This document shows positions 7,201-46,300 of a stretch of 64,000 nt of DNA, one piece after another (position 1 is the first letter of the stretch; the number at the start of each line of letters is the position of its first letter). The notes beneath the pieces were generated by a model, which was not told the origin of the DNA, ran no database searches, and was given only the letters and a program-made list of their open reading frames with translations. Origin of the DNA: Amoebophrya sp. A120 (Eukaryota > Protista > Dinoflagellata); contig CAJINV010000009.1 of NCBI GenBank assembly GCA_905178155.1, positions 2,209,373 through 2,273,372 on the forward strand, in the 5' to 3' direction. The translations under genes and the position numbers were made by a program.

Positions 7201-10200
7201 TTTAGGGCCGTCAGGGCCGTTGGTTTGCTTGCTTTTTCCCACATCACCGTCGCCATGTCTGCTTGCCACCACATCGCGACCATAGATGAAAGCCCGTGAC
7301 CTGTTTTGTCCGTCGTTTTGGCCTCAATAGGTCGGCGAAAATTACCCATCCGGACAAATTTTTGCGACTTTTGAGCTTTTCGGATTTTTTCCGCAAATAT
7401 CTGTTCAAAAAACCGGAAAAAGTCAGATTTTTCTTTTTTTTGGCAAATTTCTTCAAAATTCCGAAAATGCAGAAAAATCTATCGCGATGGGTTATTTTCG
7501 CCGACCTGTATAGGCAAAAAAGCCTACTTTTTTCGAAAAGTGGTCCGGTTTTGATTTATCTGGATGGGTTATTTTCACCCGACCTGAGTCGGGCAAAAAG
7601 TTGCTCTTTTTTTGCTTCAAAGCCGGCTTTTTTGGGAAAAAAAAACTTGGGTTTTCGGGGTATACGGGTCGGCGAAAATAACCCATCCAGATGATTTGCA
7701 AAATTTCGCTATTTTACAAAACCCCAAAAAAGGCGAGCAAAAAGCGCGCGCCTGCCCCGACCTGAGTCCGTTGATTTGGCGATTTTTTTTCTTTCAAAAA
7801 AGGAAACACTCTGAGCGACATTTTAGCCGGACTCAGGTCGGGGCAGGCGCGAGCTTTTTGCTCGCCTTTTTTGGGTTTTTGAAAAGTCACGAAATTTTGC
7901 AAATCATCTGGATGGGTTATTTTCGCCGACCTGTATACCCCGAAAACCCCAGTTTTTTTTTTACAAAAAAGCCGGCTTTGAAGCAAAAAAAGAGCAACTT
8001 TTTGATTTTGCCCGACTCAGGTCGGGCGAAAATAACCCATCCAGATAAATCAAAATCGGGCCACTTTTCGAAAAAAGTAGGCTTTTTAGCCTATACAGGT
8101 CGGCGAAAATAACCCATCGTGATAGATTTTTGGTCGATTTTTGATTTTGGCGAAAAATTGGAATTTTTTTGAATTTCTTCGCTTGCGTCTGCCCTCAACC
8201 ATTTTTGCCGGACATCCATTTCTGGACAAGCCAGGTGACCAGTTGCGCGACCATTCCGTCGCCGCGGACGCGGCCTGATTAGGGGCCAGGGAGGCGGAGG
8301 ATAGGGCGGCCGCCCTTCCGGCGCGAAGCGGGCCTGTGCGGCCCTCCCGGAGGCCGCCGGCGCGCAGGACCTTCCGCGCCGCCACCGACCACGACCAGGA
8401 GCGCGGCCGCAGACCACGAGGAAGGGCCGCGCCCTCGGGACAGAGACATTGCTGGCGGTTCTTCCCTGAGGATGCCTGGAGCTAGCTACTTTATTCACAT
8501 CATCACTAGCGATTCCTCTCAAGCCGGCTGTTCTGACTAGTTATCACGAAGCTAGCTGACGCCACGACTTTTTTTTTCGCAAAAAAAAATCAGAAAAGTC
8601 GCATTTTTTTTTAGTTTTTTTGTTTATTTTAATTTATTTTTTTGCACCGTAAAAATGGCAATTACGATGGGGATGGGTTATTTTCGTGGGATACCACCCA
8701 GTCACACAGAACGCGAAACTCGTTCAAAAACGGAGTCACCATGTACAGCTGAAAGACGCACTTGCTGAACAGGTCCACCGACCGTGTCAACGAAATTGGT
8801 TCCGCGGTTTTCGTTGCGTACCGCAATTGTAGCGAAGAAAGAGCGAGATAAGTGGCGTAGATGAGGTACAAAGCTAGCAAAAAACCGAAGTTCGCCAAGC
8901 TTTTCAAGCACGGAGAGACGTGCTGCTGTCCGTACTCGCCCGTGTCAGTTGTGCCAGGAGCAGGACGACGCTGGTTCATTGGCTGCTGACCCTGTTGTCC
9001 TCCTTTCGTGGCCAGCCCCATCAGCAACCACTCCTGCTCATTTTGGTCTTGCTGAGCGCGCAAATCGAAGTACACGATCACCAGGAAGGTGTGGGCGACA
9101 GCCATTTGAGTCAAGAGGAGAAGCTTTTGCAAGATGACACGTATGCTCGGCTTGATATCAAGAGCTGCGGCTGCGCCTGCGCTGTCTATGTCTTCGTCGC
9201 GACGCTTTTCTACTTGTTCCTCGTGTGGAACGATCATAGTATTGCTGTTTTGTCTGACGACTCGCGGTTTGTTCCCGATCCCGTATCTGTAGTTGCACTC
9301 ATCTTCATGCATCTCCAACTGCACCGCTGCCGCTTTGCCTTTGGAAAAACTACTCCGGGCGGATCGAACTTCGTGTCCCGAGTTTTCTCGTGAACCACAC
9401 TCCTCCCGCGCTGGTGGTATGCGTCGCCTCCGGAGCCCCTCTTGCAAATGGCAGCTCCTTGGCGTCACCAGTCTCCTGTCCTCGTGGTCCACGACCGCCG
9501 GCGAGAACGACAAGTGTCCGCGATTGTCTCCGCCAGTGGGACATTCAGGCTGAACGACCGACCGAGGTGTTTGCTCTACTCCGCAGGATTTCCCTCTGTT
9601 CATCTTTCCATCATCTTCGTCTCGTCGTGCAAATTTGTTGTACTCGTAGATGCCCAGTGCTTTTGCCTTCTGCCGCAATATGCGCAACCGTTCTGCTGGT
9701 CCGTTCTCGAAAGCACCATCTTCCCGGCCGCGACGTCGCCCGTTGAAAGACGTTGCTGCGGCAAAGACCGTCTTGGTCGTTCTCCAGCTATGCAGCATGC
9801 GGTCCAGCACGGCAATTAAGAACAGGTACAGTAAAGTGAGCACTTGCTTCCCGGGAACTTGCTTGCCGTTCTGCACGATCGACCACAGCGTTTCCTCCGT
9901 CCCCACCATGCGATTCCAGCACAACAGAACGTACATGATGCACACTATGATTAACCACAGCCGGACCGCGTACAAGTTGCAAGCAGGTCGCGGCAGGTCC
10001 GTAAACAGGAGGTAGTAGAGGAAAGAAAGCCGACGAGTTCCGGCGGATGGGCTTTTCCTCGTAGAAGCACCAGAAGTTTGCTCTACTACCTGCCGACCAC
10101 AGCTAGTACGGGCGCTTCTACAACCAGTCCCCCCGTTCTCTTTGACGATTTCGTGGAACAGGTCGGGGAAGGAAATTTACGAGGCGGAAAAGTCCGCCCC

Positions 10201-13200
10201 AGCCCAATTTTCAAAAATTTCAATATGTGGCTTTAGTAGTCCCGGTTAGAGGAGACAATCGGGAACGCGACCAAGCCAGTGGTCGCTGAATGCGGGGACG
10301 CGCTTCGGGCGCTCCGCCTGCCTGGGCAGGGGCCAAGCGTCGCGCCGCGCCATATCCTTGCGCTCCTATTTGGCGAATGCGGATGGTGTGGCGCGCTTTT
10401 GGGCGCCGACTTTCCTGGCCGTCGTATATTTGTGCGTGAATGCTTCACAATGTTTTCCAGAAAAGTCCGCCCCAGGACGAACAAGGAGGCCGAATCTGGT
10501 ACCCGTCGACCCTGGGGCGGACTTTTCTAGATCGGGGTACTCAGGTCGGGATTGGCCTCTCCCAGAAAAGTCCGCCCCAGGCCGAACGGGCACTCCACCA
10601 AGTGGTCGGTCGGAGAGGGCAAAAGAGGCGAAAAAACATGACACGGGGGCCCCGAGCCTCTGGGGCACTATCATTAATTCAAGGCCAGTCCTGGACTGGC
10701 CCCATTTCACATTGCGCGCCGGGCGGGAAACTGCCTTTCCAAGCTGCGCGGGTTGGGGCGTACAAGTCGCCACGAAGTCAATAATGGGAGTCGATCTCGC
10801 GGAGAAGAATACCGAGACGCAGCAGCGACAAACGGGGCATGCTTTCCGTGCGAAAAGATCTCGCGCAATGAAATTTTTGAAAATTGGGCTGGGGCGGACT
10901 TTTCCGCTTCGTAAAATTAAGTCGACACCCATTTCTCTTTGCTGGCGGATGTGCAGACACAGGATCAACAGCGCAATGAATTCTGGCCACAAAAACTGAA
11001 ACACGGAGACGTCATCGCGCGGGACCTTGACCAGCCCCAGCCACAGCATCACCCGCGCACGGCGCTGCTGCGCCGCGTCGTCTTCGTGAGCGGGGGTGTG
11101 CAGAAAATAGGAACCGAGCAGATCCTCTTCGCCGGAATTATCCACCTGCTCGTCATCCGTATTCAGGGGAGATGGTACGACGTTATTTCCGCTCCGACCC
11201 GCGATTTTTCGTGGCAGTTCTTGCTGTGCGGCATTAAAGCCTGCAAACCGCGGACGTGCACCACGACGGCCCGGCGATGCAGCACCGAGGGCTGCGCGAC
11301 CTCCTCCGCGTTTGTTGGTCGTCCTCGCGGGGACGAAGACTTGGGCACTGAATTCCGGCACGAGTGCGTGTGGCCACCCAAGCTCTGCATCAAAGCACGG
11401 CATCTGGTAAAGTGCTCGCAGGATGATGGAAAACACGAGCACGAAGCGCACGCAGCGGTAGTACACCACGGGCGTGGTCGGGTAAAACATGAGTCCAACC
11501 AGGATTGCTGTGGTATGGAAGAGCGAGACGACTGTGGGTCCCGGGGCACCGCAAGATAAAAGCACCAACGCGCTGACCACCAGCCAAAACTGTGAGCAGC
11601 TGCAGAGAACGGCCTTGTACGTCAGTGAAAGAAGGTTATCGTCTCGCGCATGCGCAGGAAAAGGCTCACTGGCGCTGCGGACAAAGATCCGATCGTCCAT
11701 CAACTTATCACAAACGCGATGGATCAGACCACAGGACTTCTGCTTGCTTTGCCGATGTTGACCCACCTGATGATATTTTTGGGGAGGTTGAACGCCGGGG
11801 CTCGCGTTCTTTTGCTGGGCGCCATCAATCGCTGACCCGGCGTTTATTTCTCCGCCTGTGTCATGGTTCCGGCCCGGCTGTCCGACGGTAGAAGTACAAG
11901 AAGCAGGTAGATTCTTTTGCGCCTCTGCAGCTGATTCTCGTGCCTCGTTCTCTGGTGTCGGGGCGGGCGGAGGCGGAGCCACTCCTGCTGTGTACAGCAA
12001 TTCTTCTGGTTTCCAAATGTGGAAGCCGCCGTCTGAAGCTGAAGCAGCCGCCGCCAAGCCCGACGCTTCGCTGCTATTCACCTCGGCGCCCGACGCCGAC
12101 CCCGACGGTGCTACCGGTCGCGCCGGTGATGTCAGAGCAACATGACCCGGACCGCCCCCATCAGCAGCTCCGTTGTAGTTTGGGCTTTTCTCACGCTCAC
12201 CAGATGGCGATAGCGGTAGATTCGAGGGACGCCGTGATGAAATGCGACGGCCTCCCAACGTTTCTCGAGACCAAGTGCGAGTTCTTGTAGACCCCCTCCG
12301 CGCTCCTGAGTGACTGCCCGCAACCCGGTCAGCCAGCGACTGCAAGAGCCGTTCCTGCTCGGCGACCATGTCCTCGTCTGAAAGCAAACACCGCCGCCGG
12401 GCGAGAATGGTTTTCAAAAAGCGCAGTGCAAAAGCTTCAATCATATCTGCGTCCAGATAGAACCGAAGCAGAATTTCCGGATCGAGCTGCCGGCTGCTGC
12501 CTTCACAAGTCCATCCTCTGTTGATTTGTTCTTCTACATCTTCCACGGGCTCTCCTGGTCCACGGCCTGGCTCCCTAGAAAATAGCGCGCCTTCTCCGAC
12601 GCCACAAAGCACTGTTCTACCGACACCAATTTCGTGCATGTCGATGTGGATGTTGGGTACAGGAAGACTCATTTCTTGTAACTGACGCTCTCGTCGCACA
12701 GAGTGCTGCAGAAGTAGCTCCAAAACGCGCGCAACGACGTTTAGCTCCAAGCCGGTTGCGAGGCCTAGTCTCTCCACGCGACTTACAAGCGTGTCTTCCC
12801 GGTGCTGGTCCACAAAATCAGCGGTCATACTCGGATGCACTCCGGCCACCCGGCGACCTTCCAGCCAGAAATTCTCCAACTGCCAAATCAATCGCTGATA
12901 CCGTCGCATACGGTGGTTCAGAATCTCGTGCTTGGTTTCCACCTCCTGTAGCTCGCAAACGCGCCACGCTTGCACACTCCAGGAAAACCGGTCTTGCCGG
13001 ACTAGTTGCACCAGTCCTGCTTGCACCTCTTGCGCTCTCAATTGCCTTGACCGTAGTTTGCGCTTCACCGCGAGCACCGACAAGTGGAAAAAGCAGATGA
13101 GAAACGCCACCATCGGCCAAAACACCGTGGGCGGGATAGCGACCAGCCACGCACCGTAGCTGGTGCGTGAGCTGCGCTTGTAGAACCCGAGCGCAAACAG

Positions 13201-16200
13201 AACCCCCTGCCACGTCTCCTGCTGCAGGAAGGTTCCCTTCTCGTCCGGTCGCACAACCGTCTGAAACAGACCGTGGCTGTGCTTCTCGTCCTGCGTCACG
13301 GAAATCGACTGAACCAGCGCGCCCTGATGCTCCACACACCGCTCTCGCTGCAGCCACGGCGTATATACCGTAGGATTAGCTGCGGAGCTGCCCGCGGTGC
13401 TGCGACGATTCCTGTGCTTATCTCTATCGACCGCTGCGGATACCGGGCACGGCGCCCATGGACTCTGGTACAGCTGCTGACAAATCAACAACAAGAAGGA
13501 GAAAAGCGCTGCCGCCTGCAGAATACGCTCCAATTTCAGCCGACCTTGCACGGTTTTACTTTTCCCGCTGCAAAAGTCACCCGCCTCCTGCTGTGCTGGC
13601 TCATAAAATGCCATCGACCCAAGCCGCAGAAAGACGACAAGCAGCACTGTGTAAATGAACATGGTGAAGTCGTAGACGCTTGGCCGGCTGATGAGACACT
13701 GCGGCAACAATCCCAGAAACAATGTCACTGCGTAAAACCAACCCCATTTTTTTCGCGATGGAGGAGCGTGATCTTCTTCACGACCACTACGCTGCAGATC
13801 CGACGTCTTCGTCTTCGCGGATGAAAAATTGTTGTTCTCGGAGTCTTTTACTCGTTCCGCCCCTGCCATCATGCGTGCTGACACGGAGTCAGGACTCAGC
13901 AGGACGCAGCAGAAAAAGAGGAATGCGCACAGCTCCGTGAAGTGCCCGTAACTCTGCAGATCCACGCGCAAGTTGAGCCAGGCGAACCAATCCTCACCAC
14001 ACGCTTTTCTTCGATCTTTTCCCTTGTAATTGTGACACAGACTTTCGACTTCGGCAAGCCATGCAGCGTCCGGCCGGTCAACGGTCCACCACTTCTTGCT
14101 ACCCGAATTGGCAGTAGCCTGTGGCGACTGCGGGTTATTCATCTGTATGCGTGTAGTAGCATCGCCCGCCGTGAAAGAATTCGTTGTCGCCGCTCCCGGC
14201 AACCACAGCGCCCAAAAGTACTGCGCAACCAAGGAAAGAAAAAGCACCCAGGCATAGATAGCGACTAGCGTCCGAGGATTTTGGTGAAGCGCGGAAAAAA
14301 TGCCCGCAGGTCTTGGAGGAAAAGACGATGACTGTAGTTTATTAGCCCTTCTATTCCCGTCACGATCGGCATGGGAAGACGCGTAGACGTTTGTTGAGCA
14401 GTCGCCATTTGAGTTTGACGGCAGACCCACATCCGCGTATCGGAATGTTCCGCCGCGGTCTCCTTCGCAGGACTCAGCCCTTCCTGCGTCTTTACGCGAG
14501 GGCGCCTCTACTTTGCAACTCCGCCGCGCTCTGCGCCGTAAATCCACATCTCTGTTCCAATCGAGGTGGGGGTCATCGATTATATCATCGATCTCCATTC
14601 CCATTGTTCGTCCGTTCAAAGCAGGGATTGATGTTTGTGGCGATGCTGTTTTTTCTCTTGCTTCATCTTCATCCGCACGCTGAATCAGTGCCCACGATGC
14701 CTCTTCATCCTCGTCCGATGAAGTCAGCAGGAGAGGCAACTCATTCTCGGTTTCTTCTGTTTCCTTCATCGGAGACGAAAAATCAGCTTCCTCCATGCCT
14801 CTTGTTCTCTCCTCAGAAACCTCCGCGGCACGGCCGCCGGCGCCGCCGGTATGATGATATAATTCCGTATTGATCAGTTTTTCGTCTTGATGTTGTTCTT
14901 CTTCATCTTGTTGACGACGCGCCGCGATCAGCTCTTGATTATCCGCAGCCTCTTTCCAGACGGTACACAAACCGAGCAACACGAAAAGCCCGTACCAGAG
15001 CGACAGAAAGTTGTCGCGGCTTACTGCGGTGACGAACAGAACAGCCACCGCCAGCTCGAGCCGAAACGTGCCCAGTACATGCCGAAAAATTTTGAAAACA
15101 GCATGGTAGAACCCAAAGCACGCGTCGGCGTCTGTTCTTGTAGTCGCTACTGATTTCGTTTCACGTTGTTCCTCTACTTCGTTCGACGCCTCTGCTACGC
15201 CGGTCGGGGTTGGAGCTGTACGAAACCCTGCCACTTGTTGTTGTTGCTCTCCGTCTTCACGACCCCGCTCGTTGGGAGGTGCAGGATGATGTGCTGGTCT
15301 ATCTACACACGAACCAGTTCGCGTGAGGACGGCGGTGTCCGCTCGGCTGTCCCTGTTGTCCGCTTCAATGTGAGCCTCGGTCTCGCGGCCCAACACCCGC
15401 CGGCAAGACGAGGCCGCTCGTGGTGCAAAAAATTCGGACTCGTCAACTCCTTCTCCTTGTTCTTCTGAAAAACCGGTCGGGCGCTCGTGCAGTTGCGAAG
15501 TAGAAGAACCAGCCAAGTTATACAGACTGTCCCGATCCTCCATCGCGGGGGAAACCCGCGAAGGCGTCGATTTCGTAGTGGCCATCCTCGCGCCTCCTGC
15601 GAACGCAAACGTGGGTCGGTCCGTCGCGCGGCGCATTCTTGCAAATTCCATACCGCCCCTGTCGCGGGGATTTCCAGACGAGTCTTGAGAGTTTATTTGT
15701 GACTGCGATGTCGAGCTACGACTGTCTCTCTCAGGAGGAGGAAAGAGCAAGTCGCTGTACTCCTGCTCTCGGTCGTTAGCAAGAGCAGCTTCAGGGGCGA
15801 CGGCACTCTCCGGCGCTCGACGCTGCAGAAGAGGGAAGCTCGCAGATCTTCTTGAATTCTTATTGTTTGCGTAGTCACCAGCGACCAGGTCGTCGTCTCC
15901 AAGCATCGGAGTACTACTTCGCCCGCCCTCTACTTGACAAAGACTCTGCTGCTGGTCATGTCGTGCTGTCCCCGCCAAAATCATACTACCAGGTGCCGCA
16001 AATCCAGTTTCTGCGGCTGTATCATGTGCACGACCATCAACCTGGTGCAACCCCCCAGCAGCGTTGCTGTAATTACAGTCGCAGTCCGCTCTTCCGCCAT
16101 CGAAACTGTCCAACTTTCCCTTCGTTTCCCACTGTTGCAGCTGCCGCGCTGCGATGAGAAATGAATACTGCTGCAAGGAACACAGAAACAGCATAATCAA

Positions 16201-19200
16201 GTTGATCAACACCTCTCGAACACCCTTGTCCCACGTGCGCGGAAGCCCCATGTAGGCGTAATCTACGTAGTCACTCAGCAAATCGTCGCGAATCGCGGGT
16301 ATCGCAGCGAAATACTTGACGAGCAGACTCACAATCGCCAGAAACAGAAACACACGACCAGCACGTCGCCGCTGCTGCACCACTTGATAGGTCGTCGAGG
16401 TTGAATTACTCGTAAAAGTCGTAGCACCCTCCACCTGCTGACCTTGCTTATCATGGTCATGCTCTGCTGCTGGATGAAGCTTCTCCTTTTCATTTTCTTG
16501 ATGCGAGGTGGGTGGAGCAGCGGCCGTGTCGCGTACTATTAAATTTCCTTGCTGCTGCTCCTGGTCGTGCTTCTTCGAAAAAATTGCGTATTTCAAAACG
16601 AACGCGAGTGCCATAAGCAAGCGCAGACGGCTCAAGAAGTTTGGCTCCGGACTAAACCAGAGCGTCAGAAACGCTATGGCGGCTAGAAGCAGATTGTCGC
16701 TGTGGACATACACGAAGCGAACCCAAAAGATTCGAGCCAGTGCTGGTCTATTTATCTTGGTCATCGAACTGCAGCTCGACGACGTCAGACTCGCTCTGGG
16801 CTGCGTCCCTGCAAATCCCGTCTGTTGATGCTGTCCGCTAGAAGTTGCTGTACTATCGCGTGGCTCACCACGATTTGAAGGCATCACTGTTCTTCTCATA
16901 GCCCCGGTACTAGCGTCATCCAGATTTTCCGACTGGTGTCTGGATTCCACCTGTTGGAAGTCGTGCTCAAGAAGTTCCCAGTTCGCGTGCACAAAAAGCA
17001 GAAGCACCCCTGAGAGAAACATTTTGAGTCGCATGTCGTCTCGGAGGCGAAAGTAAAGTCCCCAGCGCTCCTGAGAAGCGACGGGCAGCAACTTCTCCGT
17101 TATGGCGGACTCGAGCGTTGCGAAACCGAAGAAGACATGCATCACGAGGCAGACGACAATGAGCCAGGTCTCCACTTTGAACAACAGGATAGCGGCTTTC
17201 CCCCGCATGGTGGACGAGCAGGTGGACACCATCACATGATCTCCGGCGTCGGTCGGCAATGCATTTCCATTTGCAGCAGTTCTGACACTTTTGTTTTTCC
17301 GTGTCGTCCTTGCCGTGGTGCGGCGCGCCTCGCGATTGGTGCTGCTGCTGTTCAGCTCATTTGCGTTAGGCGCTTGGAGTAGATCACCTTGTTCTCCTGG
17401 AGATGGAAACTCCTCAAAAATGTCGTTATTGAACTCATCGAACGCTTCTCCAGCCATCAGACTCTGTCGCGCACAGAAAAACAAGAAGGCCAACGACTCC
17501 AAAGACAAGGGCTGCACGAGTGCGATGGCAACTGTGCCGAAAAGCACCGCCAGAAGGCAGACCGATCGCACGACCACACGCTCTTTGTCGGACGTGCCTA
17601 GTAGTGCAGCAGAAGGACCAACAGAAGGAGGTGGAGCAGAAACTGCAACATCGACAGAGCGCTGCTCTGCTGTTCTGCCACGATGCTGAAGTAGTAGAGG
17701 ACTGGCAGCCGGATCGGTTGGTCCTCGAAGCTGCTCGACCGTCGGCGGACTGTCGCAAATCTTCGGTGGACCAGAGAGGAACGAGACTCGCTTGTTTCTA
17801 TTGGGACCACCTGGACTGCCGCTATCCTCTGGGTAAAGGGGGGAAGACGAGGCGAAATTTTCGCCCGCTAAGACACCAACGGTCGTGGTAGTACACGACA
17901 AATCCCAGCGCTCTTCTTCTTCTGCTTCTTGTTCCCCAGCACTAGGTTTAGCAATGACTTCTTCGATCGGTCCCTCCTTCGGCCCGGCGCAACTGTGGAA
18001 ACCACTCAGCGATCGCAAGTGCAGAAAAATCAGGAGCATCAGCGCCACGTCTGCCCATCGAGCAAGGTCCGGAATGATCAGACGCGTTCCCGGATACGAA
18101 ATTCTGGAGCACTCCAGGTAGTTTGCGTCCGCGCTCTTCCAACCGGGGCACCCGACGCCGAGGAACGCCAGTCGGCTCTCACTCGTCCGCGTTGCGGCGG
18201 GGTCAAAATGAAGCTGCTGCCGTACTGCAGCGCCCTCGTGGTCTACTCCGTTCGCGGCTAGTAGCCCCACGTAGTACCCATTCAGCACAACGACATCACC
18301 GAGAAGGCAAGACAGAAACTTCAAGAAAATCACTGTCTGGCCGTAGATTCCGCATGCGCGCCACAAGTTGACCACCGTAGCTTGTTCCTGTTCGGTGTCA
18401 TTTCGCCGTAGCGAACTTGTGTGACCAAAAGTTCTCGAGGAGACTTCATCGTCCGATGATGGCCGCAAAGTATATCGCTGCCGCGGTGGAGGGGCTATTT
18501 CTTGCCACGTGTTGTACTTCGTCTCATCCCCGTGAAAAAGCAGCACCGCGAAGAAGACCAAGTAGCCTAACTGCGCCAGCGATGACGCAGCCGCGTCCTC
18601 CCCCATTTTCTCGCGGTCTGCACCGCCGGTGATAAACACCACAACCAAAATCCCGCACAGCGCCAGCCAGTATCGCTTTTGCAGGCAGAACTCGAAAAAC
18701 TTGAATGTCCACTTGCGTAAGGACGTGTAGCTTTCATACGCGATAGCCGCTGTGTGGTGGGTGAATGACTTCAGCACGTTCTTCTCCTCCTTTCCACCAC
18801 CCTTGCCAGCGCTGCGAGCAGGAGTACGTAGCTTTTTGTTTTTACCTCTACTCCGACTCAACGTCTCCCCTCCGTAAAAGTCATCTGCGGGGGGCGCTGC
18901 AACCTCATTGCTGTGCACACCCGGCTGCTGCGGGTTATTTATCTGGTGCCCCAAGTCCAATGGAGAGCGCGACGGCCCGGAAACGTCGTCGTGATTAATA
19001 TAGCGATTCGCTAGTTTTGGCCGGGAACAATGAACATGTTGGTGCTCCGCCTGTAGGTGCCGCCGAGGAGATGGAGACGTTGCGTCTGTGCGCGGGGACA
19101 CTGGCGATTCAGTCCCGTCTTGGTCCTCGTCCCCGTCGACGTCCTCAAAGGAATGCTCGTCCAGCTCATCCGAGGAGAACAGGATGTCAGCTAAGCCGGG

Positions 19201-22200
19201 CGGCACAAGGAGCGCACGCGCAGGTTTTGCGGGTCTGTTATGCTTGTGGAGATTCCGATGATTGTATTGGTTATACACAAGAACTCCACCCCGCGTCATT
19301 CGGGAAATGTCGCTGGACCGCCGGCTTCGGTTGCTCAGATTGTAGCCCCCTCCATGTTCAGCTGTGTAACAGCTGGTGGTCTTTCGTGCGGTGGCGTACG
19401 ATGTCGTATTCGACAGGCTGACCTGATCGAATGCGTGGTCCACACTGCCAGCAGGGCCGGCTTCTCCTCCACTTGTCGTGTTATCCCCCGGCCCCGCCGC
19501 CTCTCCCGGACTGCGATAACAGTTTGGGTGGCCAGTATAGCTTTGGCTCCGTCTAGTACGCCCCGTACTCTCAACCGCCGAGAAAAAACTACCGCGATTG
19601 ATACTCAGCGTACCATCGCGCTCTTGTTCGTGTTCGTGCTCTAGCAGCTCGGAGTATAATAAAGCGTCTGCGGTGCTCGTCGCACTGAACAAGTCTGCAG
19701 TGTGATAGTTTCCATCGGTGGTCTGTAGCCTGTTCAACACTTGCACGCCGCCTTCCTCGTAGTTGTCGTCGCACTGCGTTGCATTCATGCGTCCATCTAC
19801 GACATTATTTGTCGATTCCTCCGGAATAGCAGCTGGCTCACCGCCCGTGGCCGCCGACACTCTGACATCCGCGCGCGTTGGCGTTCTCCGACGACAGAGC
19901 AATATTCTAGCAAACTGGACTGCAAAGCGACTTCTTCGCGTGTAGCAGATGTCGTCCCCATCCTCCTCCTCTACCTCTCTATTTCGGTTGCTGGCCTTTT
20001 CATGATGGGTTTGCGAATGCAACACATAGTGCCATCCGGCAAGCCACCATACGGCTAGAAACATCAGCAAAAATGCAGATGGTTCGTCCGGAAAGAGCGC
20101 AAACCCGAATCGCGATAACGCTTCCGTTGGCGTGCTTACGCCAGATTTCCTGCCACTGCGCTCCAAAGCATTTCGGAATGGAGAAGTAGGATTCGCGACC
20201 GACATGTGGTGGTCTTCGGCTCTGTTATAATTTTGTCTGTCCGTCGCATCTCGTTTCGCGAGGAAGGACGTAGGGGCCCGGCTCGATGTCAACTGAGAAC
20301 TTGTACTTGAAGAGTTATTTGCGGCAAAATAATTCGTGCTGACATGATCATTGCTCAGCAGAGGCTCTTCTTCTACTTCTCCTACATTCACGTCTGGCGA
20401 CGCTACCTCCACGTCTTCATCTGTAGTGGTCGTGAAAGGAACGGCTGCGCGCGCTGCTGCTTGCGATCCCAAAGCAGCTGCCCCGCGGTTTAGTTGAAGA
20501 CGCGGGCTCACGATTTCCGTAGCATTTCCATTTACATACACGTTGTAGAGCAGCTGCAGAAAAACGTAGGCGATCACATAAACCAGGATGCATTTCGTTA
20601 ACTTGTCGTGCCTCGAAATGTCGCGCACGTGCAGAAGCGCAAATCCTAACAGCAACATCACCGTCGCCAGGCCGCTGGGCAACACGAAGCACCAAACTAG
20701 AAGCGGCAGCGCGAGTGCGTATGTGGAAACGCTTTTTATCACGCAACCAACTCTATCCGCGACGGACAAGACTGTCTCATCGTCCTCTTCGTCCAGATCA
20801 ACGAAGAGCATCGCGCTCGGGACACTCGCACCATATGTAGAAGACCACAGCGCAGCAGGCTCCGGTGAACTACCGAGGTGATGATCCTCTTCTTCTGCGC
20901 CATCTTGATCCGAAAAACAGGCACGCCACAATCTGTCCTTGCACGACGTAGCTGCTCTCCGTGCCTTGAATGGTGCGCCCTCATCTCCTGCTGCAGCTCC
21001 CGCGGATGTGGAAGACAAGCTGCGCATCTTTATTTCCAACTTTTCCCCGAGAAACCGCAAAACCGTCTTGGAGAAAAGAAATAGGCCGAAAAGGAAATAC
21101 GCCACAAAAGCCTGTGCGAGGCTAAGTCCGCGGTTCAGCGTAGTGGGCGTTCCGCCTGAGGACGCATCTGTTCGAAAGTCTGCCCCGAGCGTGCGGGCCC
21201 ATGTCCTTAATCTCGTCGTGTTGATGTGGCCCTCGTCGAAGGGCATCTGCTCGCAGTACTGCAGTTCCATCCACAACATAAGCGACGCAACACCGTGAGT
21301 CAGCGGCAGCAGCCGCAAGTAGCGGTGAAGTAGGACACCATCGTCGCCCAACATGTCAGGTTTGTCTTCGTCGCAAAGCAAAAGCCAGACTGCTGCTGCG
21401 AAATACAGGACAGACCACAGACTTGGGTACAGTGCCGCGAGTGCTAACAGAAGGAGGGACAGCCAGAAAACGTGACAGTGCGGCAGGTGGTGCCGATAGC
21501 TATGCACTGCAGAAGGTGCCGGCTGTACCTCATCTCCGAGAGATGATGAAGCAGGTCTTGTCGAGTGTGCCTTTCGAGTGAGATCAGCACTACCGCCCCT
21601 TCGAGCGCATGGTGCCTCGGCCTCGCCAGCAGGTGGTCCAACAAGTTTCTGCGATGATGAAGTAAAGGCCCTCGTGGCGCTCCTGCTTCGACAGCAGCAC
21701 GACATCGCAACCAATTCGCTGAGCACAACAAGGAAAAATGCGATCTCCGGTGCTAAGAAAGCGAACGCCGTACTACCTGAAAAGCTCTCGAGGGCCAGGC
21801 GACGTCGAACTGAAAAAAGTATATATTTAATGTATGAAAATGAATGAATTCAATTTACATTTCATCGCCCAGCGCAGCGATGTACCGTCAAAGTTTCAGA
21901 AGACGAGGTGAATAAACATAAACTACAGCATTTGCATTGCCGCATTTATATCCAGATTGCCTGTGATGATGTGACAGACAAGCACTTTCAAACATCCGAA
22001 AACCAAAGCGAAGCTTCGCTTCCGTTTTGGACTTCTGTCCTCCTCGCCAGCATATTCGTACACTCGTCTGACTCTTGGCAAGAACATGTACAAGCAGTTG
22101 TAACCTTCAGTACCTTCTAAAAATTGGCCCTCCGCCGCAGACACCATCGCAGCACGCGTAATTCCAAAGCCTCGATTGCACACGGCATAACTCGCACTTG

Positions 22201-23984: not shown

Positions 23985-26900
23985 TCATGTGCGTTCATCT
24001 TCGGCACGCGAAAAATATCTCTCCTGGCGGTTATTTTGTTCTAGCCAATTTTGAAAGTACTTCTGCACCAGCCGCGAATCTCGCAGCAGAGCGTTGTGCG
24101 CCAAGTACTCGGTTAATCCTCTGTAGGCCCGGCGGGCCTCGACGACGATGTCCTCTTGCAACTTGTTTTGAAACAACTGGTCCTGCAAATTCACTTCCCA
24201 AGCCACATTTTTTTCTTTCCGTTCGAACAAGGCCCGGAAGCTTTCGATCTCGTTCTTCTCGTACTGGGTCAAGGCAAACAGGGGCGTCATCTTTCCCAAC
24301 TTTTTCTCCACGGTGAACTCCCCCATGTCTTGTTTCAGGCGGTGCACGCCCCGGGACCGAAATTCGTTCTCCGTAGGGTCCAGACTCATTCCGTCGCTGA
24401 GCAAGGGGTACAGCCACTTGCTCGTCAATGTGCCGTCCTTTTTGGTCAGAACCTCCTCGACAACGTCGATCTCGTCGTTTAGCCAGCGGTGGTACCACGA
24501 CGCCTGTTGCAACGGGTCGTTGCGGTTCCTGTAGGTCGGTGCCTCGTAGCCAAAATCCTGCGCGATGAAGGCCAGGAGGAAATCCGGTGGAGGGAAGAAA
24601 AACCTCTTGTTCAAGTGGTGCTTCGGATCATCAGAAGATGTGGAAATAACCGGACTGTCGTCGTGCAGGAGCTGCTGGCGCAACTTCGTCGACGATGGAT
24701 CTACTGGTGATGAAGCGTTTCTTTTTACGGCACTCGCATGAGAATCGTGCGCAAGTAGCTTCCCTAGGAGTCGGTCGACCACTTTATGACAAATGAGAGC
24801 GGGAGACTCTGTTGCGGCGGTAGGTCCTGCGACTTGCTTCCCAGTCTCAGCCGCGTAGTCGTGGTCCCCTTCCATGTCAGATACTTCTGCAGCAGTAGTC
24901 CTACTTTCGCGAAGATTCGCGGACGCTTTGGAGGATAGGTTTTGTAGTGCAAGTGATGCAGCATCATGTCCATCGTCTTTTTCACTACGTGACTCTCGTC
25001 GAGAACCAGCAGAACCGCGAAGTTTGTCACGTGGAGGAGATGAAAAATTCGCGCGTGAAGATGTCCCCGAGGGCCTTGAGGACTTCTTAGCAATGCTATG
25101 TGAGATGACATTCCGCTGATTTGTCTCAGTCATGTCCTTCAAGAAATTGCAACTTCCGAACCTGTAGGACGATGTCCGCCGCCACAGTGGCTCGATGACC
25201 TCGGCCCATTCATAGTTGGAGAACGTGCGTTCGTGATCTTCAGGCCACGGAACGGATTCCAAAAAGTCCCGATAGGGTCTCCAGATCACGACATCGGCTC
25301 CCTCCGGCTTGGCTTCTTGTGCCCTTTGTCTCGCGCTTTCCTCCTCGTCTCTCGCGATTTGTTTGACCGACTCGGGGGGAATGCCGTTGACAAAGATCGT
25401 GCCGTTTGCTGAGGTGAGCCGGAGAGTTTCCCGACTGGCCTCGTTTTTGAACAAGCCACCCGGCCCCTTCTTTTCCTCGATAACAATGCCTTGCGCGATT
25501 TCAAAGAAAAAACCGAAGATCTCGGATTGCGGAATCGCATCCTCCCAGAAGGACTGGAAAACATCAGGATCCTCGATTGAGTTTCTTGATCCTGTTGTGA
25601 CCTCCACGACTGACCTGTCCATCTCCACGGGGGACAACACAGGGAGGGACATGGCGACCCGCTCGCCATGCGGCGCAAACGGAGTGGTCCTTGCTATTCC
25701 GTGACCGACCGGCGTCCGCGTCGAGCCTGCAGTTGGTCCCCTAGAAGTTGTCGACAAAGAAGATGCGCTGCGCTCCACATCTGCCGACGTTGTCGCGCGG
25801 CGAGCGAAACTGTTGCCCAAGGACAAACCAGGCATGATGCTAGCATCTATCGGATCCTCGTCATCTTTGAGTCCCACGGCCGGATCGCGCAAATGAACAG
25901 GCGTGGGCGACACATGATCCGCAGAAGATGCGCTGTCCTTCATCCGCGTGCTGCCTGCAGCTCGTCCTTCTCCTGAATGATGATCATAGCGAAGATCGTT
26001 CCGTTGATAGTGCATCAAGGTTGTGGAAGACCTTGCGACGCTCCCCGCCCACGTGTCTGTGCTTTGGCTGATCCCCTCGTCTGCGGGTAGCAGATCCGCC
26101 CCGCTGGTTGTTGCAAACGTGTCTCCACTGGGGCCGGCGGAATCCGGACTATTCAGGTTTTTCATAATTGCAGTGACATCAGCGGACATCCCGAGGAACG
26201 TCGTCGCTAACGCGGCAAACACCAAACATCCCCCGAGCGAAATCACACGGGCCTGCGAGTTGCCACAACACCGCCGTCGCATCCCGTATCAAATGTAAAA
26301 ATGTCTGGGTCTGGAAGAATGCGCGATTTGTCATGCAGCTTTTCTATGACCCATGAGGTCTGGCATGCAGGACATAGCATGACAGATTCTGCGCGATCTT
26401 TCCCATGCCTATCCTGCATGAAAAACTGCCTCCCGACTTGGTCAAAACTGGACGACTTTTGGTAATCATGCAACACAGATTTTTGCATGCTTCAGATTTA
26501 GCATGACAAGTTGCATTCTTCCAGACCCAGACATTTTTACATTTGATATCCCGTGGCTGCGCTCAATTCCAAAAGGAGACCGCTGATGGAACGGCCCATC
26601 CTATCCAGAAAAAAACACCCATCCACATCCAATTTGTCATGCATACCCGACTGCACCACATCAAAAACCTTTGCACCGTCGCCGCAAGCAGCTTCGGACG
26701 CAGGAGATCTAGGGTCAGAACCGCGGAAAACATCGCGAGTATTTCTTCATCCCCGGGCACATCCAATTTGTCATGCAAAACATGCATAAAATCCATTGTT
26801 TGTCATGCAAAAAATGGATGGGGATGGGTGTTTTTTCCTGGATACATCCTCGTCTCGCGCTAAGGGTTCTTGGGAGTCGTCTGATACAGAGCCGGAATTT

Positions 26901-29743
26901 ATATTCTCCTCCAAGTCTAAGTCATCGAGGACCAACTCCACCGTTCGAGCGGTCGTCCGTCCCGCTGGGTGAAGGAGAAGACTGTCGCCGCACGCATTCA
27001 GGCAACTTCCTGCTTCGTTCTTCATGTGCCAACAAAGATTTTTACACAAGCGAAATATGCCCCCGCCCCCGGAAATCAGCAATTCTGGGGTGCTTAGGAG
27101 GCACCCCATCTGGTGCTTAGGAAGCACCCCATCTGCCCCTTTGATACCGCGGGGGCCCGAACTTCGAGCCCCAGGAGCAAGAAAGTAGACTCCTGGTCCT
27201 AGCCAGGCGGGCAAGTAACCTTGTTTGACCAGCGGGAACAAAATCTCCTGGCCCGCTCCAGTTGTTACCTCTCGACGACCAAGGGTAAAAATATTACGCA
27301 CGGCGCCGCGATGAACAAAAACGCAGTAAGCTGCGCGACCTCAAGCTCATGGGATGATGGCCATCTGCTCAGGGAGCAAAGATGATCCATGCCGGCGATG
27401 AGCCAACTTCACACCCTGAGCGCCGTGGTATCGTAGGCATGCGAGCGCTCAACTTGTGACATTTTGCAGCACACATGTTGGGTTTTTGCATGCAGACACC
27501 AAAAGGTGAGCGCTGCACTCGCCCGATGCGGCAAGTCCGCCGATCCGGGTGTCACATAGACACCCGATCTGCCGGGATCTGGCGCTTCAAAAGATCGCGG
27601 CTTTTCTAAAGGGAATCCGCATGCTACAGGCCCGATTCGGCGGCGACGAAGTCGGCTCCTTCTGCGCCGCCGGATTCCGGCAGATCGGGCGTCTATGTGA
27701 CACCCGGATCGGCGGACTTGCCGATCCATAATTGGGCTCGCCGGTCGAGCTTTTTCCATATTTCGTTTTTGTGCATGACCGCGCCAAAAGCTTGAAGCTT
27801 GCCCGCGAGCCAGCTTCGGACTAGGAGTTAACTTCTTGCCGAAGGCACGCAGAGTAAGTATAACGAAGGGCAGTAGAAATACTAGCGTCGGAATCGCAAC
27901 ACTATAGCTAAGTAACAAAATACAGGCCCCATAGTCACCATGGTCCGATCGACGTGGTTTGGGTGTATTTCTATGGCGATGGATGGAACCTGCGGTCTGG
28001 GGCAATAGAGACGCCCCGTTCCTCTTTTTCATTGAGCGCAGCTTGACTCTTCAGCAAAGCGTGAGATATTGACTCTAATAAAGCACGCAGCCCTGGTGCG
28101 ACGCGCTTAAGCACCAGATGGGGTGCTTCCTAAGCACCAGATGGGGTGCCTCCTAAGCACCCCAGAATTGCTCATTTCCGGGGGCGGGGGCATATTTCGC
28201 CTGTGCTGTAATTTTCCGCATCGGCATCCTCGGCCCTTTCGCTAATCGTTACGCTATCTTCATCTTGATTGTTCTTACCGTTGCAGTGGTGCTCCGCGGG
28301 CTGACCGACACACTTGGCAGAGGGAGAGGCAGCGGACGAGGCTGGACAAATGGCAGCATTTTTATGCGCCCAAAACTGCGGCTCTGGTTGTGAAGTCCCC
28401 TTGCGGTCCCGCAACTTAGTACATTCAACACGCTGACCCAGATCAGCAGGCGACGAAGCTGAAGCACGGAGACGTTGGTCTTCGTGATGTCCTAGTCGGT
28501 TTCCCGTTCCAAGACCAACAGTGCGACACTCCGTCTTGTCTTGTGCCGGGCTTCCACCGTGTGAGGGAGAGGACGCGCTTGTGGATGGAAGCGCTGAAGA
28601 CTTACTCGTAGCTGAGCAATCACCTTCTTCGTTCCAAGGATGTTGATGCGCGCCCCTCTTTTCATCGTTTTCGACGCCAGCGCAATCAGTATGACAGGTT
28701 GTCGGGGTTTTCTCATTGCCTGCGTTTCCACCGAGAAGAAGTAAGGCCTTCCGTTTGGCCAGGCTACAAGGCGCTATCTTTGGCTCCTGGACCGTAGCTA
28801 TATCGAATCCGGCGCCAAGAAGACGGCGATTTTTCACTGGAGGGCCAGCGGATTCAGAATTTCCTGGCTCATCGTCGTCCGCCCCCTCCGGCGCGCCACT
28901 CGGCCCTTCTGCAGGGGCACTGCCGGATGCACTTAGTACAACTGTGCCGTCGCACTGTATCTGCGGGCCTCTTTCCACAACGTGGTCTCCCTCCGCTACA
29001 GCAGCTGCTAGTACGCCGGCAACTCCAATGGAACCAGTGGCAGTGCTGGGTGTAGGAGTTACATTACTGCGCTTGCTTCCTCTCTGCACTCGGCCTCTGC
29101 TACTGCCTCCTATGTCCCTCCCGGAGGTCGCGGTCGAACTGCTGCCTCGCCGTAGCCGCGACGTCGGTCCCCCGCCCTCCGCAACTTGTCTAATACCCGC
29201 ACTCTGTCGCTCTTCACCAGTCAAAGAAGAACCAGCACCAGGACGACCCGCTGGAGTTGTACTAGCGACAACTGGTTGTAGTGAAGATTCCGCTACGAAT
29301 GCACCGCCTGCGAATGCACCGCCTGCGAATGCACTACGAAGTACCGCTCCTACGAATGCACCGCCTGCCGCAGATGCTTCATCTGCTTCCGGCTCTGGCT
29401 CCTCCGCCTGCTGTGTCCTCATTGCCATGCGATCGACAACGCCTGAACTTGTGTCCCTTTCTTCTCGCGCTACTCGCTCAAGCAGGGGCAGTTGGAGTTG
29501 TCCGATGTGCTCAGAACCATCCCCTAACGGCCCACCTGGTCTTTGCTGACGCTGATCGTCCCTCGCAGCGAAATCAAATCGCGACGGAGGAGCCGAATTC
29601 AATTTCAGCGCATTTGCAGCCGTCATCGAATACGACAAGACCCAGCTGGCGCAAGTTGCAAAGAGCGCCAACAAAGGAAGTCCTCTGGCGGGGAAGATCT
29701 TCTCCATTTTGGAACAATAAACCGGATGCATCATCAAACACAT
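23985..29743 (-). CDS. Hypothetical signal-peptide + internal TM protein, ~1,356 aa, 4 exons (29743-28211, 27037-26845, 26596-26549, 26281-23985); paralog of neighbouring 30883-37986 gene
   Basis: Three ORFs (523, 176, 765 aa) join into one 4,071-nt frame when three TIR elements are removed (DAEN|LCWHMK, DED|GPFHQRSPFGIERSHG|MRRRCC). N-terminal signal-like LPLLALFATCASWVLS and internal TM ISLGGCLVFAALATTFLG. Confidence 0.85.
26287..26548. mobile_element. Introner-like TIR element 3 (262 bp), same family as element 7
   Basis: Perfect 36-bp TIR tatcaaatgtaaaaatgtctgggtctggaagaatgc. TSD tcccg (26282-26286 / 26549-26553). Frame restored on removal; in-frame stop if retained. Confidence 0.95.
26602..26844. 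mobile_element. Introner-like TIR element 4 (243 bp)
   Basis: ~30-bp TIR tatccag(a/g)aaaaaacacccatcc(a/c)catcca with 2 mismatches. TSD catcc (26597-26601 / 26845-26849). Frame restored on removal; GA...AG possible in one register. Confidence 0.95.
27043..28210. mobile_element. Introner-like TIR element 5 (1,168 bp) with ~90-bp TIRs and an internal inverted repeat
   Basis: TIRs ~27043-27135 / ~28115-28210 contain a tandem 23-bp unit ggtgcttagga(g/a)gcaccccatct and a 3-nt indel near the tip. TSD atttt (27038-27042 / 28211-28215). Internal IR at 27529-27723. Frame restored on removal. Confidence 0.92.
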
Positions 29744-30882
29744 ATCTTCACAAAGAAATGGAATAAATATATGCTCCGTGCAGACAGAATGGGAGGCACA
29801 GACTAGCAGAAGAGAAATGTATTGTAGCGAAAGGACGAATCAAAATGATAATGAACTCACTGTCAACATACCTGCTCCCGAAATCTTCAGAAGCAAACAG
29901 ATGACGAGAAGGCAGCAACGACTACGTCGACTGGTACCTACTGCACGAAAATTATGTACTTACTTACATCATGTCCACGAAGTACACGACACCATTTAGA
30001 TTAAGCCTGAAATGTACATGGACAATTTGTATTTGCGCAGTCTTTTTCTTTGTTTTCAACGTACAGAAAAATGTTTATGTTTTAGTTTTTAGAGATCATA
30101 ACAAACTGAAACTACGTTGAAGTTGAACAAGCTACTAGCTGATGCTGAGTAGAAGGAGCCTACTCCAGCTGCTGCAAGCTTGACGTCATTCACTTTGTCA
30201 TCGTTACATCGTCGACGTCATTTTTGTCAAACTCAGCAACGAACTATCTCCACCTATGTATAACATGAGAAACTGCACATCCTGCGTTGTATATGCATCT
30301 TCATCGCCCTAGCCCGGGTCTACTTGTACATGAACATGACCATCAGCAACAATTCGGCTCTAGAAGTTGAAATGAGAAGCTCTTTGGCTCCTTCGGTGCC
30401 GGTTTCTTATATGAAAAATGCAAGCTCCTTCCTGTGCGAGAGGCGGCGTGTAGTGCTAAATATTCGTCCAATGATTGAAGGAACGAATCTTATCCTGTGC
30501 CTGTGCACAAGCTATTGCTATGTTGAGTCCGAAGCTCCCTTTTAGCTCCCGAAAAAAAAATGGAATAGCAAATTCTTGGAAAATGCTGCATGATGTTGAC
30601 TTATGACTTTTCATTTCAACATGAAGATGAGCATGAGGTCGACCTCATATCTAAAATTGTCAAAATCAACGAGGGTTGCCCCCGCTCCCGCTCCGCGCAG
30701 CCAAAAATAGATCACTGCGCTGAGTCAAAAACGAGACCTACGGCGATACACACAGATGATAGCGAAGTGTCATCTTCGGTAGAGTACTGGTGCTGCAGCT
30801 CCTAGGGTAGAGCACTAGATGTGTGCTGCCCGGAGCAAGTGTCGCCCAGGTCCTCCTCCTCCTCACTCCTCCAGGCGACAGC

Positions 30883-43305: not shown

Positions 43306-46300
43306 TTACTTCGCTTTGCGCGTCTGCAAGAAGCCGCTGAGCGTGCCCATGTCGTTCTCCTCTGCGTCTTTGGAGTGGGTCTCCAGAATCTGCAGGGCAT
43401 CCTTCAACGACGCAATCTCCTCCTCGCGGCGCTTTTTGCGGGCTTCGAACTGGTCTCCGGCGTTGACGCAGGCCTCTTGCCGGGCCTTTAAAATTTCCTT
43501 GGCGGTCTCGAGCGCACCCTTCTTGGTTGACTGCTGCTCCTGGTACTTCTCCAGGTTGACCTTCTCGGTGTCAATCTCGCCGGTCAACCGCTCGATCTCC
43601 TTCTCGCACTCCGCGATGTCCTTTTCCATGGTTTCCTTGCGCTCCTGGTTCTTGTACTGCTCAGACTCGTAGTTTTTGTCACCGTCCACAATCACACCGT
43701 CGCACCCGATGTTCTCGCCCTTCCGGGTCTCGAAGCTGTCCTCCGCGACGCAGCCAGACTGTTTATTTTCATTCTCTGTGCATTGCGCGGAGTTGAATTA
43801 GCATAATTCCTGCAGCTCCAAATGCAAACACCAAATCGCCTCCCACATTTTTCTTCTATACATTAACTCAAAACTACGAATCAACGTCCCAGTTTCGAAA
43901 ATCTAATTTTAAACTCTCTTCTACCTCCATCTTGGCCTGATCCGCGGCCCAGGAGTAGTCCGACTCGATCCCGGTGAGCAGGTCGATCACGGATCCGCCG
44001 GACGTGGTGCGCTGACTGCTGAAGTCGCCGGTCGCGCTCTCGCCGTAGATTTCCTTCAGGAACCCGATGGCCTCCTGCAAAGCAGCTTCCCCGGAAACCT
44101 TTTCTTCCAAGAGATCCTTGTAGTAGCTGTCCTTCTCACCCATGAGCTTCTCTAAGGCTGCGAGGTCGGTCTCGAGCGTCTCTTTTTCTGTCGTCTCCTC
44201 GTTGAATTCGGTGTTGAGCTTGACCAGCAAGGCTTCGGTGTCCTTGACCAGCGTGACCGCGGCCTGGTGGTCCGTGTCGGCATCGTCAGAGGCGCCCTTC
44301 ATCTTCTGCAGGCTCTGCGCGCACCAGTCGGACTTCGAGGTCTCCGCGTCCTGTTCGTCTTCCAGCCGGGTAACCATGGTCTCGATCAGGTTCCGAACGG
44401 ATTTAAAGTAGTCCGGCTTGGAAACCTGCAAGTTCATCTGCAGAGCGACGGAGGAAAGGCGAGAGCCTGATGATATTTGAATGATTGGCTATGATTTTGC
44501 AATTCCAAAACATAGCGCAAATGAACCCATGCCAGAAGGCCAAACTAGCTCCACCGATCTCCGACAGCGGGTCTACGGCTCTTCTACGGAGAGTTTTCAT
44601 CACATATAGCTGGTTTATTTATGCGCGTTCTAAATCGTCGCGTCACAACTGCACTGGTAAACAAAAACAAGGCGAGTACAAGCTTCTTCGATAGTCTTAA
44701 AACTATCTGGCGAGCCAGGTAAAAAAAACAATAGTACTGTGCAAAACCGCGGCGGACGAGGCGATGCTCTTCAGGACGTTGGCAACCCGCTGACGCAACT
44801 CCTTGTCGTCCGAGCCCAGCTGCAAGAAACTCTCGCCGGCCGGCGCCGGGACCTTCTGCAACGCTGCAATAGCGCCGGTCAACCCGGAGATCTCGGCGGT
44901 CAACAGCTTTGTGCTCGCGTCGTACGCGACCGCGGCTTTTTGGCACGTTTCGGTCGTCTCGGCCACGCCCTTCTTGGCGGTTGTGCGAATTTCCTTCTCG
45001 TCCACCAGGGCGGACTGCGTCTCCCCCAACTTTCCCTTGGTGTCCGACAACTCGGCCTCGAGCTTCTCGGAAGCGGCGATGGAAAGATCTAATATGGCGC
45101 TCTCAAACGTTACATTCTCAACTGTTACACGATTTGTCATGCAAAATTGCCTTCAGAATCGACAGCATCAAGCTGCTACGCCTGACAAATTATCAGAGGG
45201 CCAAACAGGCTGATAATCGGTGCCAAGTCTGTCATGCAAGACGCGCAAGATTCCCCCTATCACTTTTGCCATTCATTCTTGCATCGCAAACTCATGTAAC
45301 AGTTGAGAATGTAACAGTTGAGAACGCCATATCTAAAAAGCCCTGGTTGGAAGAAATTGCCTCCTCCAAGTCGTGGATCTTCGCCTGACATTCATCCTCG
45401 CCCTGCTGAATCTCGGTTTTCCTGTCGAAAGCGTGCTTTCGCAGCTTCGTCACCATGGTAACGACGGCTTTGCTGCTCGAGTTATCAAATGCAAAAATGT
45501 CTGGGTCTGGAAGAGTCATGCTGTTTTTGCATGACAAAGAAGGGCTGGCATGGAGGCTCTAGCATCACAGGTTTCGACAAGCGTTCACAATGCCGAATCC
45601 GCATGACAAATCACCCCTTTTGGTGACAGAAAGTGGAAACTTTTGCTGCCTTTGCATGAGAGATTTTTTTGTGCTCTGTAATGCGCATTACAAGTTTGTA
45701 TCTCCAGACCCAGACATTTTTGCATTTGATACGAGTCCTGCATCAGGGTCAGAACCTTGTCGCACGCCGCCATCATGGCATATGAAAGCCTCAGAATGGA
45801 AATCCTCAAAGTGGAAATGATTTGTGATGCATGAAATGCGACGCAAAATAGACTGTATTGCCGAGAACGCAATGGAGGCTGACTATTGTCCTGCTAGGGG
45901 TCAAGAATTGGAGTGCTGCTTAGCACGACAGAAGGGCCCCCCCTTGCCTTAAGCTGCATGACAGACACGCTTTAAGTGCCCGGGAAATTTGTCATGCGCC
46001 GACTATAAATGGCGCTCCAACTGGAGTCGTTTTTTTGCATTACAAATTATTTTCACTTTGAGGATTTCCAACCTGAGGCTTTCATATGGCATCCAGCTTG
46101 CGGACGCGCTCCTCGCATTCCTGCTTAGTGGTGTCCAGAAGGGTGGTGTCACCACCTGGTGGTTTTTGTTTGTTGTATCACTATCAATCCTTGTTCCGTT
46201 TATCCGAGCCACTTTTAAAAATGATTCCTGCACGCATATTTTTCTACACACAGACGACAAGCAGCGGTAGTGCTAGGAAGCGAAAAAGTGGGATTCCAAA

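Follow-up and report, generated by a model that had tools for sequence, protein, structure and literature searches.

Non-canonical introns make up more than 60% of the introns of Amoebophrya strains A25 and A120, and about 65% of those of A120 according to Table S4 of PMC7789003. The same study describes these introns as carrying inverted repeats of 8 to 20 nucleotides (nt) and direct repeats of 3 to 5 nt, with a TAT start in A120, and reports hairpins that join the exon boundaries as well as a missing U1. Here, we analyzed a stretch of 64,000 nt of the Amoebophrya sp. A120 genome (contig CAJINV010000009.1, positions 2,209,373 to 2,273,372; hereafter the window), in which eight inverted-repeat elements interrupt the coding exons of three genes. 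They belong to the A120 system of non-canonical introns, or introner elements, published by Farhat et al. (2021; PMC7789003), the hairpin idea included; the phenomenon is striking yet already known. Our main finding is that the elements are almost certainly removed precisely and without GT-AG signals, and that this removal is probably directed by their own ends. To this we add an enumeration of cut registers, two test cases (elements 4 and 7), statistics that place GT and AG at chance level, and the use of mismatched duplications as a reporter, none of which we found in the available text of PMC7789003.

Searching for inverted repeats with a direct repeat on either side revealed eight elements with TA…TA ends and an exact 5-nt direct repeat, referred to below as the target site duplication (TSD). 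All lie in three genes of the minus strand, described here by their open reading frames (ORFs) in amino acids (aa):

Gene A, 4252..21849, minus strand: Piezo-like channel ORF of 5026 aa from stop to stop; hosts elements 1 and 2.
Gene B, 23985..29839, minus strand: ORF of 1388 aa from stop to stop, no Pfam family; hosts elements 3 to 5.
Gene C, 43306..46861, minus strand: protein of 700 aa; hosts elements 6 to 8 and three GT-AG introns.

Element 1, 6923..8693, minus strand: 1771 nt, TA..TA with nested inverted repeats; TSD 6918-6922 / 8694-8698.
Element 2, 10178..10913, minus strand: 736 nt, in the Piezo-like gene; TSD 10173-10177 / 10914-10918.
Element 3, 26287..26548, minus strand: 262 nt, in gene B; TSD 26282-26286 / 26549-26553.
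Element 4, 26602..26844, minus strand: 243 nt, in gene B; TSD 26597-26601 / 26845-26849.
Element 5, 27043..28210, minus strand: 1168 nt, in gene B, terminal repeat with a 2-nt indel; TSD 27038-27042 / 28211-28215.
Element 6, 45093..45331, minus strand: 239 nt, in gene C; TSD 45088-45092 / 45332-45336.
Element 7, 45483..45731, minus strand: 249 nt, in gene C; TSD 45478-45482 / 45732-45736.
Element 8, 45781..46086, minus strand: 306 nt, in gene C; TSD 45776-45780 / 46087-46091.

An earlier reading of this DNA, made from the letters alone (the sequence-only reading), had listed eight such elements with their possible end dinucleotides, and our enumeration reproduced that list, with exact 5-nt repeats in eight of eight. 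Its range, 10173..46091, takes in elements 2 to 8, while element 1 lies outside it at 6923-8693. In register 1, where the cut falls one nucleotide into the TSD, the ends are GT..AG for element 1, AT..AA for element 2, GG..AC for element 3, GA..AG for element 4, AA..AA for element 5, TA..AT for element 6, CT..AA for element 7 and GC..AT for element 8. When every equivalent register was enumerated, GT..AG could be obtained for element 1 only (6922-8697) and for none of elements 2 to 8, as had been claimed. A test for canonical ends (GT, GC or GA…AG) thus gave GT-AG once in eight, GA-AG once in eight (element 4) and neither in the other six; GA..AG is among the dinoflagellate motifs of Table S4 in PMC7789003. 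The constant TA before the last base, to which attention had been drawn, holds only in register 1, a register that the sequence by itself does not fix.

The two ends of each element resemble one another. In seven elements, 17 to 20 of the first 20 positions are complementary, element 5 differing by its 2-nt indel; the start is TAT in six of the eight and TAC in elements 2 and 5, and elements 3 and 7 have a terminal sequence in common. No transposase or other Pfam domain was matched in the five internal ORFs scanned (three in element 1, the others in elements 2 and 5), and Rfam gave no match within the window. Element 1 is foldback-like: its nested inverted repeats reach 177 and 155 nt, and it also contains several tandem sub-repeats. 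The motif GCATGAC or its complement recurs 35 to 50 nt from the ends, in both orientations, in elements 3, 4, 6 and 7 and in related loci, where it may serve as a transposase site or as a branch-like motif.

Taking out each element together with one TSD copy restores long ORFs of 5026, 1388 and 729 aa in genes A, B and C, the last measured from stop to stop, and all partial combinations give shorter ones. Element 1 interrupts the Piezo THU9/anchor domain collinearly, as positions 166 to 170 of the Pfam profile bracket three codons omitted from two queries; gene C has a weak match to the Filament family, under the Pfam cut-off. Four database proteins were compared with these models: P0001 and P0002 (both found with an exon of gene C), P0003 and P0004. 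The first, from Amoebophrya sp. A120 (100% identity), equals the precise 700-aa model of gene C letter for letter, and P0002, from A25 (75%), is collinear with gene C at all six junctions and ungapped over elements 6, 7 and 8. P0003, also from A120, equals the precise model of gene B over elements 3 and 4, and P0004 that of gene A (1544 of 1544 aa identical), with elements 1 and 2 precisely removed. The precise models are therefore matched by database proteins at seven of eight junctions. P0001 and P0003 come, we infer, from the published gene models of A120, which rest on aligned transcripts (PMC7789003, Methods). As P0004 starts at 11403, it covers only the last 1544 aa of gene A; the late starts of P0004 and P0003 suggest that the gene models of A and B are split, and a protein search with the long Piezo exon of gene A found nothing at 2003-6376 aa.

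Ordinary splicing at nearby GT-AG, GC-AG or GA-AG sites, or at positions that RNA editing has turned canonical, might achieve a similar result if a few residues were sacrificed. Only element 7 had been credited with an in-frame GT-AG alternative; that option is real (45476-45732, one Ser fewer, DSSK), and others had been overlooked. Element 4 has one at 26601-26845 that adds an Asp, where P0003 has the precise DEDG instead; element 6 has one adding six residues, which is unused in P0001; element 1 has one adding a codon, with whose longer form P0004 is incompatible; and element 8 has an in-frame GC-AG option. The test case of element 7 resolves on the precise side, the A120 protein P0001 reading DSSSK and the junction of its A25 orthologue P0002 reading ESSSK. 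Elements 2, 3 and 5 have no in-frame GT/GC/GA-AG pair within 12 nt of their ends, and for this reason, and because the database proteins carry the precise form, cryptic canonical sites were rejected as the main explanation; we regard them as very improbable. Elements 4 and 7, in each of which precise removal has a canonical in-frame competitor, offer a handle on the chemistry.

Sequencing reads bear on the same question. Four of 16 sequencing runs were placed on 26180-46179. Run X1 is called RNA from its behaviour, the kind of run being a guess of the tool. Its gene C contig has a depth of 224.5 and skips two of the three ordinary introns of that gene:

43759..43924, minus strand: GT-AG intron of gene C, skipped in the X1 contig (joint seen), no end pairing.
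44467..44737, minus strand: GT-AG intron of gene C, skipped in the X1 contig, no end pairing.
46156..46362, minus strand: GT-AG intron of gene C, where a loose end of X1 at 46155 resumes at 46363, no end pairing.

The three introns proposed earlier from sequence are thus real. The accompanying claim that both intron types share the same genes stands for gene C, while our models of genes A and B needed no GT-AG intron. A further ordinary GT-AG intron, at 40019-40215 on the minus strand, is skipped in an X1 contig and adjoins an ORF that encodes an MtN3/SWEET sugar-transporter domain. The last listed piece of the X1 gene C contig stops at 45086, which is the leftmost precise register of element 6, and none of the G[TCA]-AG introns tested at this element yields that end, a further point against cryptic canonical splicing. 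Inside the elements, X1 depth is 0 at 45252 (element 6), 19.5 at 45634 and 0 at 45637 (element 7), and 5.5 at 45788 (element 8). Elements 6 to 8 are, by depth, missing from this RNA-like gene contig; gene B is barely covered by X1.

In their TA-bounded ends and their orientation symmetry the elements recall DNA elimination. They could be excised from DNA in the manner of ciliate internal eliminated sequences, or be absent from the expressed allele, and the very high summed depth at their ends (more than 1e5, against about 45 for single copy), a mark of large repeat families, could be read in the same way. Run X10, however, is DNA-like, with a flat depth of about 45 and one contig over 28145-44696 that keeps the introns. 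Its single-copy contigs (depth 44.9 and 47.9), which like contigs in general drop rare variants, enter elements 4, 5 and 6 by 26 to 29 letters, just short of the 31 that the tool requires for bridging, and among the X10 joints listed none skips an element. With no sign of it among these joints, DNA excision was rejected as the main explanation, and we regard it as very improbable. The matches of the raw RNA runs X14 and X15 are confined to element ends, at 90-95% identity; no exon is matched, and these runs carry no information on element junctions. Reads of X14 at 26462-26550 and 45781-45842 join element ends (90-95%) to unrelated sequence, which indicates that some transcripts of a relative still contain pieces of the ends of these families.

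To see these features in a larger sample, the end of elements 3 and 7 was used to scan metagenome_contigs, giving at least 149 loci (369,024 bases). This survey concerns another assembly and bears on removal from RNA only by way of DNA sequence; its evidence for a repeated family comes through the shared end of elements 3 and 7. Among 458 TA..TA inverted-repeat pairs, 188 have an exact 5-nt repeat, while repeats of 3, 4, 7 and 8 nt occur 8, 6, 1 and 1 times and 233 pairs have none, many of these being cross-pairs or pairs with diverged repeats. The 5-nt repeat is thus not due to chance. At three loci (L004:2123-2341, L016:282-591 and L027:1739-2066) it appears to lie three extra bases away from one end, possibly through imprecise insertion or as part of a longer, diverged repeat. 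After nested, duplicate and non-TAT pairs were dropped, 185 remained, 181 of them with flanks that could be scored by a coding model trained on the ORFs of the window. The flanking frames agree with precise removal in 114 of the 181 (p 4e-16) and in 37 of the 42 whose strand and frame could be assigned confidently (p 3e-13), against an expected one third.

GT-AG is no more common than insertion at random would make it. A GT-AG register exists on either strand in 16 of the 181 and on the inferred coding strand in 3 of the 42; in a set of 90, selected for precise frame and strand margin, it occurs six times, versus 3.65 ± 1.8 under random insertion. In this set AG at register 1 was counted 31 times (27.9 ± 4.6 expected) and GT at register 4 25 times (27.5 ± 4.5), with no enrichment of either dinucleotide at any register. 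In-frame GT-AG pairs lie nearby equally often on both strands (42 versus 44 of 90), which again speaks against cryptic canonical sites. TSD base composition is near that of the flanks, and neither TSD base bias nor the identity of derived copies gave a signal of the cut register. What the 90 elements have in common is the end consensus TAT(C/G)AAATG(C/T)AAAAAT, present at both ends.

The elements are MITE-like insertions (MITE, miniature inverted-repeat transposable element) in coding exons, and their loss with one TSD copy restores the proteins. We propose that each element is probably excised from RNA by a pathway that reads the element ends rather than GT and AG, possibly apart from ordinary splicing, as has been proposed for Euglena. 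The signal would be the symmetric end (TAT, about seven variable nt, AAA, then a stem of 20 to 60 bp), read in either orientation, and both cuts would fall at an identical register in each TSD copy, which would repair any insertion site.

How the ends are recognized is a separate matter. The sequence-only reading had base-pairing of the terminal repeats set the cuts; removal independent of dinucleotides holds up well, pairing is at most a candidate signal, and the mechanism of that reading, which is the published working idea (PMC7789003), is half supported. On folding, six of six elements (1 and 5 were left out) pair end to end, with z from -4.4 to -11.4, and the three GT-AG introns of gene C do not; this is no proof of function, because any inverted repeat would fold so. 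Stem positions 9 and 11-13 pair in 96-99% of the 181 elements, positions 1-3 being imposed by the scan, and sense end-duplexes are not more stable than antisense ones (35 versus 47 of 90). Judged from these sequences, a terminal motif at fixed spacing would explain the data as well as pairing.

Duplications that have diverged carry information on the cut itself. A rescan anchored on the ends gave 320 elements, whose TSD copies are identical in 241, differ by one mismatch in 41 and by more in 38. The one-mismatch pairs are synonymous in 21 of all 41, in 19 of the 31 with confident frame and in 15 of the 25 passing a stricter filter, an excess over neutrality in all three sets (p ≤ 0.004) that is absent from the 10 low-confidence cases; the TSD is therefore coding. 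Compared with a single fixed register under full constraint on the exonic copy and with the observed transition bias, p was 0.17 for the 41, 0.026 for the 31 and 0.047 for the 25. Over all settings p ranged from 0.007 to 0.30 (0.007-0.07 for the 31, 0.08-0.30 for the unfiltered 41), with filters picked after the data were seen and a few pairs that may be mis-joined. This is a weak hint that both TSD copies may be represented in the mRNA, in other words that the position of the cut may wobble within the TSD. It is conceivable, though unlikely, that a non-spliceosomal machine measures from the element ends and cuts loosely within the 5-nt duplication, the duplication then making removal exact. 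The 41 diverged elements among the 320 would show the cut register directly in existing RNA-seq data.

As to the catalyst, since GT and AG occur no more often than by chance and the elements have no direction, we tentatively favour one distinct from the spliceosome and Euglena-like, which stands barely ahead of an altered spliceosome. The alternative has nearly comparable standing: the organism's own U2 spliceosome would carry out the precise, end-directed removal, a terminal motif or hairpin replacing recognition by U1 and U2AF, and register 1 would then mean a relaxed UA-N acceptor. It draws its weight from the fact that A25 and A120 have nearly all spliceosomal proteins and the U2, U4, U5 and U6 small nuclear RNAs (snRNAs), A120 keeping Prp8 and U2AF among the proteins, and U1 snRNA went undetected (PMC7789003). 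The Karlodinium strain, by comparison, has U1 and mostly GT-AG introns (PMC12005148), and tunicates offer a precedent (PMC11282704). A TRAC motif 15 to 60 nt from the 3' end is found in 55 of 90 elements in sense and 43 of 90 in antisense, a bias that is gone in the set of 42 (25 versus 23). Overall, neither a branch point nor a motif with strand bias emerged convincingly from the survey close to the 3' end, and no 5-mer there was clearly biased (best uncorrected p 0.01). G is not enriched where TAG or GTAT would arise, and both ends lie in a long predicted stem. We know of no precedent for a fully dinucleotide-blind spliceosome.

Several points weigh against precise, end-directed removal by a separate pathway. 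For element 5, removal is indicated by ORF continuity alone, P0003 beginning downstream of it at 27025; P0001, P0003 and P0004 may come from one annotation source and so not be independent; and X1 supports elements 7 and 8 by depth, with no junction read directly. GT at register 1 is found six times in the set of 42 (2.1 ± 1.4 expected), and six times against 4.3 ± 2.0 in the set of 90. If RNA pairing were selected, G·U should exceed A·C on the coding strand, and it does not (47 versus 53 in the 90, 17 versus 30 in the 42); stem positions 4 to 7 pair in 69, 73, 85 and 51% of the 181 elements, so that these data give no sign of selection on pairing in the RNA. A transposase signal may be all that the end motif is. 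The retention of U2, U4, U5, U6, Prp8 and U2AF, with U1 snRNA undetected, points to an altered spliceosome.

The window as a whole agrees with the published description of co-oriented gene blocks in Amoebophrya (PMC7789003), ten of its ten ORFs longer than 500 aa being on the minus strand. At 52453-61542 (minus strand) lies a single, element-free ORF of 3029 aa that encodes a tubulin-tyrosine ligase domain. Two ORFs of 535 and 758 aa at 47422-51289 (minus strand) share 17 nt, read in different frames, and are not separated by any element; they may be adjacent genes or reflect a short intron or a frameshift.

Among known systems, the Amoebophrya introner elements of PMC7789003 match elements 1 to 8 in their terminal inverted repeats (TAT-N7-AAA), boundary repeats of 3 to 5 nt and non-GT-AG ends. 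That study also describes genes mixing both intron types and a hairpin model, as in this window, and the A120-named proteins are 100% identical; no difference in kind emerges from its available text. Inverted and direct repeats, the TAT start, membership of a repeated family and the lack of a transposase all recur here, within the scopes given above. Absence from the transcript is indicated by X1 depth for elements 6 to 8 and by database proteins only for elements 1 to 4, element 5 falling outside both. Our literature search, in which few subscription journals were covered, found no study mapping lariats, circles or the cut register in Amoebophrya, and the available text of PMC12787238 held nothing on these elements.

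The introners of Micromonas and Aureococcus, and those known from other dinoflagellates, are likewise introns derived from DNA transposons, with TSDs and spreading in exons, but in them the element or the TSD supplies recognisable GT/GC-AG sites, whereas here GT-AG is at chance (PMC7789003, PMC11282704, PMC12130899). The U2 introns of Fritillaria borealis are, as here, abundant, MITE-derived and non-GT-AG; they keep AG-AC and AG-AT ends attributed to the spliceosome, whereas no dinucleotide is preferred here (PMC11282704). The non-conventional introns of euglenids share with elements 1 to 8 a MITE-like origin, terminal inverted repeats, TSD-like junction repeats, non-GT-AG ends and a place beside spliceosomal introns (PMC12501133, PMC11282704). 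Their end code, N3CDG…CH'GN5-6|R, differs from the TAT…ATA with a 5-nt TSD found here, and CDG…CH'G at fixed spacing does not occur in our elements. The introns of Euglena, an unrelated lineage, have been dissected genetically and are excised as circles, whereas the elements described here are known from sequence (PMC12501133, PMC11282704). If a non-spliceosomal machine does act in Amoebophrya, splicing of the Euglena type would have arisen independently a second time, and a transposon could insert at any exon site in either orientation. The elements of this window may work like euglenid introns but are not members of that class.

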